A stretch of DNA of 64,000 nucleotides from an uncultured Nitrososphaeraceae archaeon (GTDB lineage Archaea; Thermoproteota; Nitrososphaeria; Nitrososphaerales; Nitrososphaeraceae). A model generated the notes under the pieces. The model saw nothing but the letters and a program-made list of their open reading frames with translations, did no database searches and was not told the DNA's origin. Both the position numbers and the translations under genes were made by a program. The stretch is taken from the NCBI GenBank assembly GCA_963825865.1, contig CAWGVG010000033.1:32001-96000 (forward strand), given 5' to 3'. This document shows, piece by piece, positions 47,103 to 56,392 of the stretch (its first letter is position 1; each line of letters opens with the position of its first letter).

Positions 47103-48767
47103 TCAATTAGATGGAAAAATGCGAAAGTTAAACCCAAATTCAGTGCTGCCTCCACCTGTACGTGCTAATGCAGCAGCGTTTTTATTATCACTTTCTATAG
47201 GAAATAAAGCATCTATAGTTGTATTATTGCCCATCGTTATTGTGGAGCTTTGCTGCATAGGACCATCAGATCCAGAACCTCCAATGTAGCTTCTGCTGGT
47301 AGGGCTTTGATATACACCTCTTGGAGATTTTGCCTTATGAGGATGGTTTGTGCTGATGCTACTGTCGTCTGATCCGGGACCCACATTGTCGCGACTGCTG
47401 CCGCTTTCTCTTCCACCTGTAGCCACAGGATTATAGTTACTGCTGCCACTACTGTGACCGGGATAGCCCAGGTATTCCATACCTGATACCTTGCCAGTGC
47501 CGCTGTTCCCTAGACTAGTTACTTGATTGGCATTAGCTGCGTCAGGGTAGCCCAGGTATGAATCCTTACCTGATACCTTGCCAGTGCCGCTGTTCCCTAG
47601 ACTAGTTACTTGATTGGCATTAGCTGCGTCAGGGTAGCCCAGGTATGAATCCTTACCTGATACCTTGCCAGTGCCGCCGTTCCCTAGACTAGTTACTTGA
47701 TTGGCATTAGCTGCGTCAGGGTAGCCCAGGTATGAATCCTTACCTGATACCTTGCCAGTGCCGCCGTTCCCTAGACTAGTTACTTGATTGGCATTAGCTG
47801 CGTCAGGGTAGCCCAGGTATGAATCCTTACCTGATACCTTGCCAGTGCCGCCGTTCCCTAGACTAGTTACTTGATTGGCATTAGCTGCGTCAGGGTAGCC
47901 CAGGTATGAATCCTTACCTGATACCTTGCCAGTGCCGCCGTTCCCTAGACTAGTTACTTGATTGGCATTAGCTGCGTCAGGGTAGCCCAGGTATGAATCC
48001 TTACCTGATACCTTGCCAGTGCCGCCGTTCCCTAGAAACGTGGTAGTAATTACTTGACTGGCATTAGCTGCGTCAGGGTAGCCCAGGTATTCCATACCTG
48101 ATAGGTTGCCAGTGCCGCCGTTCCCTAGAAACTTTGTACTAGTTACTTGACTGGCATTCTTGGAAATCAGGTACGGTAGTATTGCACTTCTGGTATTATT
48201 AGATACTACATGAGTGGTCTGCTGGATCGGAATGGTATTCTTATAAGTTGTATTTGATACATTTTGCTGCCCCTGTTGTTGTTTAGCAGTAGTCGCCACT
48301 CCAGTAATATTTACACTATTAAAAGATGTTAAACCAGGATTATTACTGCATGTATATTTAGCTGTAATTTTATTATTTGGTCCTTGTTTTATTGTAGTGT
48401 AATTAGAACTAAGTACAAAATTCCATTTAGAAAAATCTGCTCCTCCGCCAGGGCCAATTCCAGTAGCCGGTTGATATGGTTTTACACCATTTGCAATAAC
48501 AGATACTTGGCAATGAGTTGTTGTTATTGTTGCATTACCAGGAGTATAGACTCCAGACACTGTAAGTTCTTTATCTATTGGTAATTCTTGGCCTTTAGTA
48601 GGAGATGTTATTTTAATAGAATGTAATTTCGGGACTGATGGTGATGGCGTCTGCTGTGTATTTATGGCTACCTTTTGGGCATAAATTACAGTGGTATTGG
48701 TCAAAACAGCAAAAATAAGTAAGCTGACCACCAACAATACTGTGAAAACTCGAGTACCGTAATTCAT
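47103..48767 (-). CDS. secreted protein with Ig-like domain and 29-aa tandem repeats
   Basis: Signal peptide, IKITSP Ig-like domain, eight YLGYP-containing repeats, Ser-rich tail. Confidence 0.8.
   Translation of the reverse strand: MNYGTRVFTVLLVVSLLIFAVLTNTTVIYAQKVAINTQQTPSPSVPKLHSIKITSPTKGQELPIDKELTVSGVYTPGNATITTTHCQVSVIANGVKPYQPATGIGPGGGADFSKWNFVLSSNYTTIKQGPNNKITAKYTCSNNPGLTSFNSVNITGVATTAKQQQGQQNVSNTTYKNTIPIQQTTHVVSNNTRSAILPYLISKNASQVTSTKFLGNGGTGNLSGMEYLGYPDAANASQVITTTFLGNGGTGKVSGKDSYLGYPDAANANQVTSLGNGGTGKVSGKDSYLGYPDAANANQVTSLGNGGTGKVSGKDSYLGYPDAANANQVTSLGNGGTGKVSGKDSYLGYPDAANANQVTSLGNGGTGKVSGKDSYLGYPDAANANQVTSLGNSGTGKVSGKDSYLGYPDAANANQVTSLGNSGTGKVSGMEYLGYPGHSSGSSNYNPVATGGRESGSSRDNVGPGSDDSSISTNHPHKAKSPRGVYQSPTSRSYIGGSGSDGPMQQSSTITMGNNTTIDALFPIESDNKNAAALARTGGGSTEFGFNFRIFPSN
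47464..48157. repeat. 87-bp tandem repeat, six near-identical plus two degenerate units
   Basis: Unit encodes KVSGKDSYLGYPDAANANQVTSLGNGGTG; e.g. GGTAGCCCAGGTATG recurs at 47546 and 47633. Confidence 0.95.
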
Positions 48768-49251: not shown

Positions 49252-49670
49252 GTCGACGTGTGCTCTCTATATCCCATATAGATCGCTTGGTTTATTAATA
49301 TTATAAAAATAGGTATCAGTTTCAGTTGACTATACATGATTTTCACTTCCTCCTCCCAAAATAATTTACGTATTTCTAATACTTGATTATACTCCTAACA
49401 ATTGTGTAAATCGTCTGTTGTATACAATTATAATTATGCATTTTGGAAACGGCTTATTATTATCTTTACCATTCACCAATCTTGGGTACATAGTTATAAT
49501 ACGTTAAGGCGATGACGCTGCATATTCCACACATAATAGTTCAAACATAATATGACAGAGAACGGGAAGGAAAATTTTACACTGAAAAAAGGTCACTTCA
49601 AAAAAGTCGTTCAGTACATCAGTAGTAGAAAGAAAAAGGTCTTTCTTTTGTTCCTTTTTTTACATTTAGT

Positions 49671-50096
49671 TCAAGCGGTTCCTTGCTCAGATTCGTCTTC
49701 GGTTTCGGTTTCGGTTGCACCCGCTGTTCCTTTTGTCATTCCGCTTCTTCTAGCTCTTTCTGTCGCCTCTTGAGTGTTTTGTCCTGCTTGTCCTGGTTCT
49801 GTAATCACTTCACTCATTTCTCTCTTTACAGCCGTTGGTTCATGTTCCTTTATTTTTGCAGGTGTCATCGGCTCTTTCTCTTTGTACTGAGTTAGAGGAT
49901 CTTCTTTTCCTCCGTATTCATGGTCTGTGCCTGATCCACCTTCTTCAAATCGTCTGTCTTCAGCGTTACTAGTAGAACTACCTGTAGTGGAAGATATACC
50001 TTCTTTAGTTGTGTTAGTTGCCTTCTCTGTAACACCCTTTACTTTGTCTTTAGCATCCGTTACTTTTTCTTTAACCTTATCCTTAATCTTACTCAT
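49671..50096 (-). CDS. hydrophilic disordered protein (LEA/stress-like)
   Basis: KDKVKEKVTDAKDKVK repeats, very low hydrophobicity. Confidence 0.7.
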   Translation of the reverse strand: MSKIKDKVKEKVTDAKDKVKGVTEKATNTTKEGISSTTGSSTSNAEDRRFEEGGSGTDHEYGGKEDPLTQYKEKEPMTPAKIKEHEPTAVKREMSEVITEPGQAGQNTQEATERARRSGMTKGTAGATETETEDESEQGTA

Positions 50097-50523
50097 TGTT
50101 ATTGAACTATTCTACAATGTATTAATGAATCCTCTACAATTATTATATAAGAAAAATTAGTACATTTATCTATAAATCCTATGCACTTTTTGGCATATTA
50201 GTTCTATGACAGTATAATATATTTGTTATTTGCAGATAAGTAAACAAAAATATTATATGTTGATGCAATCTATTATGAAAAAGTTAGCGCATACAGCCAA
50301 TGATTCATTCCTGCTACTGAAACAAACATTCAGATGTCAATCTCTTCCCCCGATAGGGGGCATGAATCTCTACCGTTTATCTTTGTCAGAGTAATGTGGT
50401 TACAAAATACCTTCCTTTGAAAAAGTTTTCTCTCTTCAACTCTATCGAAGATTAACGTACTTTGGTTTAAGGCCAGCTTGTTTTCTGTTTCAGCAAACAC
50501 TATCGGTTCATCATCTGTCTTAG

Positions 50524-50673
50524 TTATACAGATTTTAATGTAGTGTGAACCTTCTCCATGCTGTCTGAAGCGGATTGTAAAACATGTTTAGCCGTTACAA
50601 AGTGCGCTGCATGAAGGTCAGATTGTGATTGAATGCCTACAAAAAAACCTGTTCCGAGAGGGATAACTCCATT
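50524..50673 (-). pseudogene. trypsin-like serine protease N-terminal fragment
   Basis: PLGTGFFVG..HFVTAKHVL read on the minus strand; no Asp or Ser motif follows. Confidence 0.55.
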
Positions 50674-50936
50674 GATTTTTTCTTCAAAAATTCGTATTGT
50701 TCAATGTAAGCAAATGTAGCTTCTCGTACTTACAAACCAATATGTGCAGATTCAAGAATCTTTTTTGGTTGACCTGTTTGAGGATCTATCACATACTGTC
50801 CTGTTCTTGGGTCTAAAAGATATTCCTGGCTTAACTCAAGTGCTTTTGCTTGAAGAAAATCATAAACTTCGTCATTAACTCTGAAACCAACTGGTGTCAG
50901 TTTGTTTTTCTTAGGCTTAGTGTTAGGTGTTGACAT
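50637..50936 (-). CDS. ribbon-helix-helix-like DNA-binding protein (in-frame TAA at 50730-32)
   Basis: Basic tail, strand PVGFRV, helix DEVYDFLQAKALEL; after the stop the same frame continues VREATFAYIEQYEFLKK..VFL*. Confidence 0.6.
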
Positions 50937-51425
50937 TTATCACTTTATCACTTATCACGCAAGGTAAATCCGGATTCTTTTTAAGGCTGAGCATAAAATG
51001 CCCTAAAGTGCGAACCAAATGGACCTCAATCAGGTTTAATTGGTTCTTACAACTTTTTTCTACAACAGAAATTATTCCAGCTAAGCCTTTATACACTATC
51101 ATATAATTTTTGAATTTATAACAGTTAGCATAAAACTGGGGAAAACTGGCAAAAAACAAACTTTTTGTGATTGACTTTTTCCGGAAAATTTTGTTATCAC
51201 TTTATAGAATGTTATCACTAACCAAGGTTCTTATCACAAACACCGGGACTTATCACGCAAACCATGCCTTATCACGAAAACATGTCTTACCACCTAGGGT
51301 ATGAGTTATCACTCTGAAAATTTTTATCACTCTTATCACTCTTATCACGTCCGTTAACTTTATCACAGAAAAATCTTATGTGATAATGTAAATCTTATCA
51401 CGTATCTCATCTTTTTTTGTGATAT
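50937..51425. repeat. TTATCAC heptamer (iteron-like) array
   Basis: Copies at 50937, 50945, 50952, 51194, 51212, 51231, 51250, 51269, 51287 (TTACCAC), 51306, 51324, 51333, 51342, 51360, 51395; inverted at 51380 and 51419. Confidence 0.92.
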
Positions 51426-51534
51426 AAGGCATAAGCAATGATTCAAAGTGCGGTAAATGAGTATTGGAAACTAATAGCAATTGATTCACTTGAAAGTTCT
51501 ATCAATGCAGAAAGACTGTCAGATGCAGAACAGC

Positions 51535-51860
51535 CTATATTAGCATAGCTATGTAATGCTCAGTAAAGTAATCTTGTGATGATATGTACTTGTTGTTGTT
51601 GTCCTCCATACATAAATTATTGTCTATTAAAATACCATTTACAACAATATCAATATAGTCATTGGGAATATTAGTATAATTTTTGAGTTTACTGCGTAAA
51701 TCACCTTCCCAATTCGTTGCAATAACATTTTGGTTAATTTGTGGCGCAATTATTCTAAATCCATTAAAGAAGGGAGACGTAAAAGTAACAAAGAAGCCGT
51801 ATGTTAATGAAGTAATAGCCATAAAGAAGAAGCCAGTAAATGAAGATGTAACAAGCCCCT
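51535..51860 (-). CDS. small membrane-associated hypothetical protein (start uncertain)
   Basis: Hydrophobic repeated GFF/TS segments then soluble domain. Confidence 0.4.
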
Positions 51861-52019
51861 TTTTTACTACCCTACGAAGTTCCTAATTCGTTTTTAAATT
51901 TGCAAAACATTATACGGTTTATGGTAATAGTGGCGCTAATCAGGATTCGACTAAACAGGTCTTGCAGTAAGGTTATAGTTTATTACCTAGTTTAATAAAG
52001 ATATTTTACTGTTTGTTGT

Positions 52020-52220
52020 ATGGCGTCTAGAGATGAACATACTATCAAGTGTAGTATTTGTGGACGAATGTTGATAGTTAGTGATATCGTTAATAATGGA
52101 GTAGCTTTTCTAAGCCATTTGAAATTAGACCATGGTATTACATATACTCCTCAACGTATGACTGAAGTACGGACCAAGAGTAAAAGTGTAGAAAATCAAA
52201 CATACAAACTACTTGAATAA
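52020..52220 (+). CDS. small C2H2-type zinc-finger protein
   Basis: CSICG..FLSHLKLDHG. Confidence 0.65.
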   Translation: MASRDEHTIKCSICGRMLIVSDIVNNGVAFLSHLKLDHGITYTPQRMTEVRTKSKSVENQTYKLLE

Positions 52221-52794
52221 GTATATAATTATAAGACTAAAACTCGTTGTTATCATATCTACCATTAGATCTTGAAGAAACAAGTATGTATTCCAACAAC
52301 AAATAAAATCTTGGAAAGCATTTCTATATAATAATAGAGTGTAAAAATAACACCTTTTCTTAACACCTTAAGTAAGCTTCATAACACTAATCTCAAGAGC
52401 CCTCACTGGCAATACTATATCGTTAAATAATTTAGGGTACTGCTGTTTGATCCTAAATGAATATGTTATCATCCGATTCCTAGTAATCATTATTAGAGGT
52501 GATCACCTTATCTACTGGATGAGGGATCTCGCCTTTTTCCGCATGCTCTGCCATATGTTTGGAAGCATTTTCATTATCTATGTTTTTGTTGCATATCCTA
52601 CAGGAAACCATAGAGGTTTTTGTTTACTCTATTTTTAACTCTTCTGGTTATTGGCCACTATAAACGAAAGGGGTTAATATGAACATGTAACGGGTTCATT
52701 GTTTTATTGATCAACTCTTAGATTCAACCTACAATATCGTATGGCATTTTTGTATATTGGTTATTCCTTGGTTTAGCTATTTTTATCATTATTA

Positions 52795-54733: not shown

Positions 54734-55563
54734 ATGAACTGACAATAACGATACGAAAAAATCCAGAGTTCACTGACTTACTTCAGAAAAACCTCAAGTC
54801 CAGATACGAGGAAAAAAAAAGGCTAGACAATGTAGTACATGTGTCTGATATTATTCCTAGCACTTGTATTAGGAAGCAATATTATTCTAGGAAGTTTCCC
54901 GAGATGGATCCTATCTCCAATAAATCAGTACACCATTTTGTTAGAGGTGAATCAAGCGAATTTGTTATCACACAGCTTGCCAAGATGGGAGTAGCACAAG
55001 TAGATATAGAAATGGACGGAATAGTCGCTCATCCAGACATTATGACTAAAAATGGGGATGTAATAGTTGAATTAAAAGATACGGTTAGTGGCAAGCGTCT
55101 AGTATTTTCTGATAATATTTTTCGATCATATCTTAGACAGTTATTATATTATTTGGTTATGACTGGTATAGAAAAAGGAATTATTTCTATTAGATATAAT
55201 ATTAAAGAATTAAAGTGGATGAAAGGCGATTCACAAGGAAATAGTTATTTCTTAAGACCAGTAGATGCCAAAGACGTAGGTATAGAAAGTTGGGAAATAT
55301 TTCTGCCATCAAGCGATGTCGCAAGAGAAATATTGAGGAATGAAATGGTTAGGAGAAAGAATCTGTTTTTAAAAGCCTTACAAGAAAATGATGTGTCGGT
55401 ATTACCAAGACTTCCAGAAAATACAAAAAAGAGTAAATGTCCTTATTGTCCATTTTACGACAAGTGTATGAATCATGATCAAGAGACAGGAGAGGCTAAA
55501 GAAATGGCAAATGAAATAGATTTGCTTGATATAAATGGTGTTGTGGATGTTAATCCTTTATAG
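54734..55563 (+). CDS. solo Cas4-like PD-(D/E)xK nuclease with Fe-S cysteines (start region probably frameshifted)
   Basis: HVSD..CIRK, HPD..VELKD, QLLYY, CPYCPFYDKC. Confidence 0.8.
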
Positions 55564-55776: not shown

Positions 55777-56392
55777 CTAACCAATTGAATTAAATTTTGA
55801 TATGAATTTCCACAAATACCATGTGGCTACACTTCTATAAGGTTTCCATGGTTGAGATATAGCTAGCATTGTAGATGAAGTAGGAAGTTCAGGAAGCGAA
55901 TATACTTTCTGCATAGCCTTTCTGATTCCCAGATCTCCAACAGGTAGAACATCAGGTCGTCCAAGGCAAAATATTAAGAACATCTCTGCTGTCCATCTTC
56001 CAATTCCCTTTACCTCAGTTAATTGGTCGATGATATCCTCATCTGTCATTGTAGGCAATACCTTCAAATCTAATCTATGGTCTGCAACTCGTGCAGACAG
56101 AATCCTTCAAGTACTGTATTTTTTTGCTTGATAATCCAACCTTGCATTTTAGCATTGCATCAGGAGTTGACAAAATTTGTGAAGGTATAGGTACAGAATT
56201 GTTATAATATTTGATAAACCTTCCATAAATAATACTGGCAGCCGCTCCAGCAAGTTGTTGATAAATTATGGACTCAAGTAAGGATTGGAATGGATCGTGG
56301 CGAATTTTAATAGAATATTTTCCGACAGCATCAATTACTTTGTTAAGAACGGGATCTACTTCAGAAAGATACTTGACAGGATCTATGTTCAC
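55777..56392 (-). CDS. alkA: DNA-3-methyladenine glycosylase II (HhH-GPD), frameshift near 56095
   Basis: SIIYQQLAG, VKGIGRWTAEMFL, LPVGDLG, WKPYRS. Confidence 0.9.

Follow-up and report, generated by a model that had tools for sequence, protein, structure and literature searches.

A phased heptamer array beside a decayed, probable ribbon-helix-helix gene in a soil archaeon: possible remnant of a self-contained autorepressing cassette

The window analysed here is a stretch of 64,000 nucleotides from the genome of an uncultured Nitrososphaeraceae archaeon (GCA_963825865.1, contig CAWGVG010000033.1, positions 32,001 to 96,000), and we focus on a short locus (50637-51425) in which a small minus-strand gene, probably of the ribbon-helix-helix (RHH) type, lies beside a phased array of the heptamer TTATCAC. 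We tentatively read this locus as the dead copy of a self-contained cassette, in which an RHH protein would repress its own promoter through abutting heptamers and the array would provide auxiliary sites. Copies or fragments of the cassette are present in at least nine places in this genome (the window and at least eight others), and one scan found 11 further loci in soil metagenome contigs; the whole appears to represent a new, narrow family. In bacteria and hyperthermophilic archaea, RHH proteins that recognise short repeats arranged in rows govern plasmid partition, copy control and virus switching, and to our knowledge nothing comparable has been described for ammonia-oxidising archaea (AOA), whose mobile elements are poorly known and for which genetic tools are lacking.

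Heptamer array, putative operator and conserved non-coding blocks

The array proper (51194-51366) holds 11 direct heptamers, ten of them exact copies of TTATCAC (starting on the plus strand at 51194, 51212, 51231, 51250, 51269, 51306, 51324, 51333, 51342 and 51360) and one of them TTACCAC (51287), with heptamer-to-heptamer spacings of 18, 19, 19, 19, 18, 19, 18, 9, 9 and 18 bp. An outer part (51380-51425) adds an inverted copy (51380-51386), a direct copy (51395-51401) and an inverted copy with one mismatch, ATATCAC (51419-51425). Positions and spacings agree to the base with those reported in a first-pass annotation of the window, and the enrichment is beyond chance: the window contains 29 exact heptamers against 12.8 expected, a count reached in none of 100 shuffles, and 15 of these 29 fall within 50937-51401. 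At the density of the whole genome (953 heptamers), 0.04 would be expected per 208 bp, giving a Poisson P of 3e-26 for 12 or more. We looked for mutual likeness among the spacers between array heptamers and found none, and Tandem Repeats Finder (TRF) returned only partial periods of 18 and 9. A CRISPR-like array was rejected, the 7-nt repeats and 11-12 nt spacers being far too short. Structured RNA is equally unsupported, with zero matches in an Rfam search of 49500-52500 and fold z-scores of -1.26 (array strand) and -1.80 (spacer). One RNA run (X20) gave a single 215-nt contig on 50452-50666 and none on the gene core or the array, which is uninformative either way.

In the gene sense the heptamer reads GTGATAA, and three abutting copies of it (at 50937, 50945 and 50952, spaced by 7 and 8 bp) form a putative operator (50937-50958, minus strand) between a TATA-like box and the start codon, ending one base from the ATG (50936-50934) of the minus-strand open reading frame (ORF). 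The array has the same orientation as this operator, and its innermost copy lies 242 bp from the first operator heptamer. One heptamer, and essentially only that one, recurs at both the promoter-proximal operator and the upstream array, as had been noticed in the first pass. Two or three heptamers stand directly before the ATG in all metagenome loci with upstream sequence (10/10) and in all genome copies that keep the promoter (4/4). With the TATA-like box some 25 bp ahead of the first operator heptamer, the operator would cover the expected transcription start.

Read in the gene sense, the cassette shows a conserved order of array units, palindrome TTTTCCGGAAAA, GC-poor block AAAAGTTTGTTTTTTGCCA, AT-rich TATA-like block, ATTGAGGTC, promoter block, operator and ATG. 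The perfect palindrome (51177-51188) stands beside the innermost array heptamer and recurs in array-bearing copies, either unchanged or with at most two changes. The AT-rich block (51097-51124; TTATAAATTCAAAAATTATATGATAG in the gene sense) may be another TATA-like element or a stretch that melts easily. The putative promoter block (50963-50998, minus strand) is 36 nt long, reads TTTTATGCTCAGCCTTAAAAAGAATCCGGATTTACC in the gene sense, and combines the TATA-like TTAAAAAG with the palindrome ATCCGGAT; in an eight-row alignment (A3) 29 of its 36 columns are invariant, and one metagenome locus, L007, equals the window at 36/36. Operator heptamers, promoter block and innermost array units are kept despite a synonymous divergence (Ks) of about 1 in the gene; as its synonymous sites are close to saturation between these very copies, we take the non-coding blocks to be constrained. 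Array and operator are separated by 242, 243, 242, 244, 238 and 244 bp in six of the copies and by 218 bp in one more.

At the outer edge of the array, the stretch 51403-51590 is a variable insertion or deletion. Soil runs X1 and X3, which come from different studies, each gave one contig that passes over these 188 bp, with the joint running from 51402 to 51591. The locus is polymorphic in the field.

Decay, selection and predicted fold of the protein

The gene (50637-50936, minus strand) spans 99 codons with an in-frame TAA at 50730-50732 (TTA on the plus strand), which leaves an open part of 68 aa (50733-50936) and removes helix 2 from the protein, the break falling between SAHIGL and LVREATFAYIEQYEFL. 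Intact homologues are 96-121 aa long. In three of them (P0004 of 99 aa, P0002 of 105 aa and P0003 of 96 aa) Leu takes the place of the window's stop, and the sequence continues ...HIGLLVREATFAYIEQYEFL. Soil runs X1 and X2, which belong to two other studies, each gave one contig with A at 50731 and hence the Leu codon TTA on the gene strand, and the C62 copy, 96% identical to the window, carries the same TAA plus a frameshift. Because the intact homologues and the X1 and X2 contigs read Leu and the C62 copy shares the stop, the TAA is a real nonsense mutation of the window's lineage that predates the C33/C62 duplication described below. The stop-corrected 99-aa protein and the decay of the gene, both proposed in the first-pass annotation, are thereby borne out. 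The gene is a pseudogene and, its product being deprived of helix 2, the locus is a relic.

The C-terminus of the window-type gene derives from a rearrangement. Downstream of the gene, where the metagenome loci L007 and L008 have a second gene (ORF2), the window contains broken ORF pieces (50340-50636, minus strand) that match no Pfam family and form the left part of the segment duplicated in C62. Reading 50527-50700 as a fragment of a trypsin-like protease, from a motif picked out by eye, found no Pfam support and was rejected.

The RHH protein was under purifying selection, since the ratio of non-synonymous to synonymous divergence (Ka/Ks) is low. It amounts to 0.10-0.20 between the window and four loci, to 0.13-0.18 between the window type and the L007/L008 type over a conserved core of 52 codons (Ks near or above 1, and about 1 for window type against L007 type), and to 0.075 between the intact L007 and L008 genes (52 codons).

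Relatives of the window protein are few: 20 were found among 5.8 billion proteins searched, all small and from soil-type sources. A full HMMER pass over 1.84 billion representatives gave only about nine small relatives and no fused form of the protein; the family is therefore narrow. The remaining matches of that pass are giant proteins that share a short motif, DPxTGxxxxDPxTG, with an insert of about 25 residues (LLDPRTGQYVIDPQTGQPKKIL) lying between helix 1 and helix 2. The part concerned (LLDPRTGQYVIDPQTGQP; P0004 residues 38-60, window 50757-50825) matches repeated units of this motif in proteins of 800-5000 aa, which may indicate a shared hairpin module or be a mere compositional echo. 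The N-terminal tail is Lys-rich, with invariant K9, K10 and K12 (alignment columns).

Sequence comparison did not place the protein in any described family. The 68-aa product matched no Pfam family, and the 12 members of the A2 alignment gave weak rows only, the best (E 0.019) to an unrelated family; a NikA-like match was obtained for one of the 12 (E 0.096). A PHROGs search of the RHH protein returned no family, a profile search of PDB sequences gave an unrelated protein as its best match (E 0.43), and Foldseek on PDB found nothing at E <= 0.001. One MetJ cluster among the 30 matches of an Atlas search (score 0.90) is a lead only.

An AlphaFold2 (AF2) model of P0004 from a 12-row alignment (predicted local distance difference test, pLDDT, 76.7) has helices at residues 22-36 and 66-98 around the hairpin-like insert. 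Modelled as a homodimer, the protein scores 0.67 against 0.00 for the best control, with at least 96% contact agreement across runs and a partner pLDDT of at least 78; that mark is reached by 20 of 30 solved one-chain pairs and by one of 23 solved single chains. In the model, residues 14-20 pair in antiparallel fashion (17:17, 19:15, 20:16) and helix 2 packs on helix 2 (70:70, 73:74, 74:74), a predicted interface laid out as in RHH dimers. As solved RHH dimers are numerous, the pass may stem from likeness to them. A VIA-wide structure search is headed by MatP (Z 5.2, rmsd 1.9, 56 residues aligned) and MazE-mt9 (Z 5.1, rmsd 2.3, 54 aligned); its RHH rows span Z 3.2-5.2, two of them at Z >= 5, in a range (Z under 8) that the tool describes as common. 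About 30 of the 50 rows are RHH binders, and include PutA-RHH, ParD, FitA, TraM, the ParB of pCXC100, NikR, ORF56, AmrZ and Arc.

An RHH fold is therefore likely on the strength of the models. We likewise consider it likely that the protein is a divergent RHH form, in which the insert of about 25 residues replaces the usual tight turn and the invariant R19 and N21 would face outward on the ribbon. The first pass had suggested an RHH protein with a basic tail and had made its proposal depend on that fold; the fold holds in prediction, supported by the homodimer model and the weak structural matches and by no sequence profile.

Copies of the cassette and competing readings

The genome (4.98 Mb in 62 contigs, estimated completeness 82%, contamination 2.8%, archaeal amoA present) is large for an ammonia-oxidising archaeon and rich in repeated and broken gene families, with 28 integrase-like matches. 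Its cassette copies are all short and many are broken, with an upstream array that ranges from 0 to 14 heptamers between copies. Clusters of hexamer cores (five or more in 300 bp) were found in five places, namely the window, C62, C14, C42 and C29, the last being a coding repeat irrelevant to the cassette. In C42 (5326-5437) there are five direct GTGATAA at spacings of 43, 31, 19 and 18, and no remnant of an RHH gene was seen nearby; this is either a very decayed cassette copy or an independent cluster. The first-pass annotation had expected such arrays not to be spread over the genome independently of the gene: they do occur elsewhere, but all bar the small C42 cluster are copies of the same cassette.

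The remaining copies are partial in different ways. The C10 fragment retains the promoter and two operator heptamers without array (BLAST and reading), those in C15, C30 and at 28.8 kb in C33 retain three or four array units plus the palindrome without gene, and C59 has a gene fragment with stops. The window and C62 copies (the C33/C62 pair) are a 1278-bp segmental duplication (window 50340-51616, 96% identity) with unrelated broken pieces at both ends, and neither inverted terminal repeats nor target duplications were seen at its boundaries. The C14 copy (L018, 7580-8710) owes a fusion of the RHH N-terminus with the end of ORF2 to a deletion between two similar EAYDY-coding stretches, accompanied by a 38-bp duplication. 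It is followed by two small ORFs (102 and 89 aa) that may show what originally lay downstream in the cassette.

Of the 11 metagenome contigs, four start within the conserved promoter block, which is what assemblies broken at a repeat would show. Six loci have at least 150 bp upstream, and they contain 4, 4, 2, 2, 0 and 0 array units. L013 and L015 share a chromosomal flank and differ by exactly the array. The conditions that the first-pass annotation set for its own failure gave a mixed outcome overall; on arrays beside homologues, two loci, L012 and L015, depart from it in lacking the array, with the operator kept. L007 and L008 have intact RHH genes of 121-122 aa, followed after 14-17 bp by the small acidic ORF2 (68-96 aa in these two loci), whose relatives have several different C-termini. 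No toxin family was matched in Pfam or PHROGs by ORF2 of L007 and L008 or by the C14 ORFs.

Outside these sources the cassette was not encountered. Scans of viral contigs, by protein pattern and by DNA pattern, found no relative, nor did pattern scans of species-representative genomes, collections that the window's own genome possibly lies outside. A protein search of 60 related genomes gave one weak match (G015, 34 residues, E 0.002). In 237 genomes of the same family a double heptamer occurs at 40 places against about 50 for a reversed-pattern control, that is, at control level; 19 of the 40 were inspected, the three best were read, and the cassette was in none. Literature on thaumarchaeal elements with RHH proteins, on archaeal plasmid iterons and on Nitrososphaera plasmids did not describe the cassette, nor did a query with the bare heptamer, which was swamped by primer sequences. 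Within the genome, tandem heptamer pairs are confined to cassette copies (14 places) bar three scattered pairs, and the protein has no regulon outside the cassette.

These data can be accommodated by a regulatory mechanism, which is the minimal account because it needs no absent partner. The RHH dimer would most likely recognise the non-palindromic heptamer GTGATAA, and dimers sitting on the two or three abutting heptamers between TATA-like box and ATG would shut off their own promoter. The upstream array, at 18-19 bp and locally 9 bp, could then serve as a bank of auxiliary sites that loads many dimers beside the promoter; with units 18.5 bp apart, each dimer would be rotated by roughly a quarter of a helical turn from the one before, so that a filled array would wind around the DNA and might reinforce repression by looping or as a wrapped filament. 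Such a role of the array would require no partner gene.

Several points weigh against this interpretation. The 11-14 extra sites far exceed what a simple autoregulator needs, and a site for maintenance in cis would account equally well or better for copy-number variation, the invariant tail Lys and a selfish spread without regulon. The constant distance of 242 bp may merely reflect few indels in a conserved stretch, and the array-less loci L012 and L015 also have broken genes, so that dispensability of the array is not to be read from them. At the level of the protein, heptamer binding is a prediction, the RHH assignment comes without a credible sequence-profile match, and the Z values of 3-5 in the VIA search belong to the range that the tool itself calls common.

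Of the alternatives, taken in descending order of probability, the first is that the protein is an adaptor of the omega/ParG/ParR type and that a plasmid or virus of soil ammonia oxidisers would use the array for its partition, with autoregulation through the operator and a motor lost or acting in trans. It would explain why non-palindromic heptads with the ATCAC core of the omega site (WATCACW) overlap the protein's own promoter, why the repeat number differs between copies and why no regulon is apparent outside the cassette; moreover, the ParB of pCXC100 and TraM are among the structural rows. The disordered N-tail with its invariant Lys is comparable to the omega tail peptide with K10, as described in PMC9499535. 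However, no ParA-like match (PF01656, PF13614; ParA/CbiA/AAA_31) lies within 20 kb of any of the nine genome places, none was found among the ORFs read in the 11 metagenome loci (seven of them listed), the flanks all look chromosomal, and the viral contigs gave no match by protein or DNA pattern. Omega arrays consist of 7-10 contiguous heptads; as described in PMC9499535, at least four contiguous heptads are required to activate the ParA protein delta, gapped arrays failing to do so. At most three sites abut in the cassette: the operator heptamers are spaced by 7-8 bp, those at 51324-51348 by 9 bp, and the remaining array sites lie 18-19 bp apart. We consider a centromere of this kind unlikely. 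ParM (PF06406) had no match in the genome and none in 14 control genomes either, so that this search is uninformative.

A broader version of the same idea, which we hold to be rather unlikely, is that the cassette is the maintenance core (an adaptor plus a centromere-like or iteron-like array) of an unseen plasmid or virus of soil AOA, with motor or replicase supplied in trans and the chromosomal copies being fossils of repeated capture. As of a 2019 survey (PMC6563490), no plasmid or virus had been characterised for soil AOA. The variation in array size and copy number, the invariant tail Lys and the selfish, regulon-free spread keep maintenance readings alive, and the absence of motor, replicase and mobile-element context in 20 loci weighs against them.

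The first-pass annotation had proposed a partition or replication locus of a decayed, integrated plasmid or virus. Its remark that no ParA or Rep gene is visible nearby is upheld by the family searches, and the proposal itself is not supported: no motor, Rep or capsid gene was found at the nine genome places or the 11 metagenome loci. The window contains no tRNA, and the nearest integrase-like match (PF00589) on its contig is 43 kb away, so that by the features used for integrated mobile genetic elements (iMGE) in PMC6563490 it does not classify as an integrated plasmid or provirus. Among the other copies, only the C15 fragment has an integrase-like match within 10 kb (at 4.5 kb, weak and below the curated cut-off), the next nearest being 10.6 kb from the C10 fragment. 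The flanking ORFs of the copies look like housekeeping genes (labels by eye), those beside the locus in the window encode Nramp, topoisomerase I and an M20 peptidase, and the viral contigs lack the cassette. In C15 (L020, 7000-12650) a fragment of three array units plus spacer, without gene, is separated by 4.5 kb from a split gene of tyrosine-recombinase-like type; a Big_5 membrane protein and an ORF of 295 aa stand in between, and this may be a small cryptic integrated element.

Replication offers a third possibility, which we regard as improbable: the direct repeats would be iterons, the RHH protein a repressor resembling CopG or ORF56, and a downstream rep gene would have been lost. Direct repeats, an AT-rich conserved spacer and a gene with repeats in its promoter do make up the architecture of iteron plasmids, and ORF56 of pRN1 is among the structural rows (Z 3.5). 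Yet Rep_3 (PF01051) has zero matches in the genome, the six matches to Prim-Pol (PF09250) all lie more than 60 kb from any cassette copy, and the spacing of 18-19 bp is off the helical repeat. In the two intact loci, furthermore, the next gene is the acidic ORF of 68-96 aa, followed in L008 by a housekeeping-looking gene within 0.8 kb. A chromosomal origin was rejected outright, given nine cassette copies without orc1/cdc6 context.

Quite improbable, in our judgement, is an addiction cassette resembling type II toxin-antitoxin modules, in which the RHH protein would act both as antitoxin and as autorepressor, partnered by ORF2 (68 to about 150 aa). The order of the two genes, with the RHH gene first and 14-17 bp to ORF2, the many scattered and decaying copies amid housekeeping-looking genes, the preponderance of RHH antitoxins among the best structural rows and the disordered, Q-rich C-tail of the RHH protein in L007 and L008 all resemble such modules. 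On the other hand, ORF2 is strongly acidic and matched no toxin family, the window type lacks ORF2 and owes its C-terminus to rearrangement, and a long upstream array is not a known feature of these modules.

Finally, we hold it to be very improbable that the array is a cluster of binding sites at the end of a transposon-like or integrating element to which the RHH protein would be an accessory factor. The L013 array does start only five bases away from the chromosomal flank, precisely the array is missing from L015 at that site, and the 188-bp indel at the outer edge differs between populations, but the C33/C62 boundaries, at which neither inverted terminal repeats nor target duplications were seen, belong to a segmental duplication that dragged along unrelated gene fragments, no transposase adjoins any copy, and integrase-like matches come only as close as 4.5 kb (weak, C15) and 10.6 kb (C10).

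Some further features of the surroundings deserve mention. The right end of the segment duplicated in C62 is formed by the last 27 codons of a coiled-coil gene family (51535-51616, minus strand), outside the cassette; in the window this remnant sits in a probably spurious 95-aa ORF (51535-51822). The family is itself multi-copy (C7:64990-65430, C12:61322-62426, C54:48057-49009, C60:226083-226415, C37 and C13), with several members frameshifted, an N-terminus that reads MSIIRQDRQKLVLDLYYNQ... and, as read by eye, a candidate helix-turn-helix (HTH). The stretch 47103-48767 (minus strand) is a 554-aa ORF with a signal-like N-terminus and about eight tandem 29-residue repeats (LGNGGTGKVSGKDSYLGYPDAANANQVTS) of 87-bp period and 81-95% identity in self-matches, matching no Pfam family. 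A lone Cas4-like PD-(D/E)XK nuclease with a C-terminal Cys cluster (54841-55563, plus strand) matches PHROG 1706 (E 2.9e-11), and the Pfam family Cas_Cas4 covers its Cys cluster only (E 0.59); neither CRISPR nor cas genes were noticed nearby, though no search was aimed at them. A DNA glycosylase of HhH-GPD type (55777-56392, minus strand) is apparently split into ORFs of 105 and 96 aa, which may be a frameshift or a pseudogene.

Relation to known systems

If the array is merely regulatory, as we tentatively prefer, the cassette clearly exemplifies how a selfish mini-cassette that regulates itself spreads and decays within the large genome of a soil archaeon. If the array is instead a maintenance site, it points to an unseen replicon, and a maintenance core would provide a first cis/trans pair for a stable vector in soil AOA; interest would be high only if an extrachromosomal carrier is found.

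Rep_3 iteron origins share with the cassette direct repeats with a period near 20 bp, placed upstream of a gene that has repeats in its promoter, but their iteron binder is a winged-helix initiator and not an RHH protein, and no Rep_3 is present in this genome. RHH antitoxins (ParD, MazE-mt9, TacA, FitA) provide the best structural rows (Z 4-5) and likewise belong to two-gene, multi-copy and often decayed cassettes; their modules, however, have no counterpart of the upstream array, and the cassette has no recognisable toxin.

CopG of pMV158 and ORF56 of the Sulfolobus plasmid pRN1 are small RHH autorepressors that bind before their own gene, as the cassette protein would. Their binding site is an inverted repeat, and a rep gene is transcribed together with theirs, whereas the cassette has direct repeats, a distal array and no rep gene. 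ParR/parC (type II partition, R1 and pSK41) also combines, as described in a review, an N-terminal RHH domain with tandem direct repeats, around or ahead of its own operon's promoter, that act as centromere and operator. Units of parC measure 11 or 20 bp, and these repeats are contiguous, unlike a 7-bp core with unrelated spacers.

Another close parallel is omega, the ParB of pSM19035 and inc18 plasmids, and the likeness to its WATCACW heptads pointed out in the first pass is real at the level of the motif, the core ATCAC being common to both. Heptads of omega are bound in either orientation by a pseudo-symmetric dimer (as described in PMC9499535 and PMC5016525). Both systems have non-palindromic 7-bp sites, direct and inverted, that abut in the protein's own promoter, and a small RHH dimer (here predicted) with a flexible basic N-tail. 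They differ in that the two proteins have no detectable sequence relation, the window's array is spaced by 18-19 bp and has no linked ParA, and the cassette copies are chromosomal, multiple and decaying in an archaeal host. With a protein of 99-121 aa and a site of 7 bp, the cassette is a compact pair open to direct test, with an unusually spaced array and an unusual insert of about 25 residues within the predicted RHH fold.

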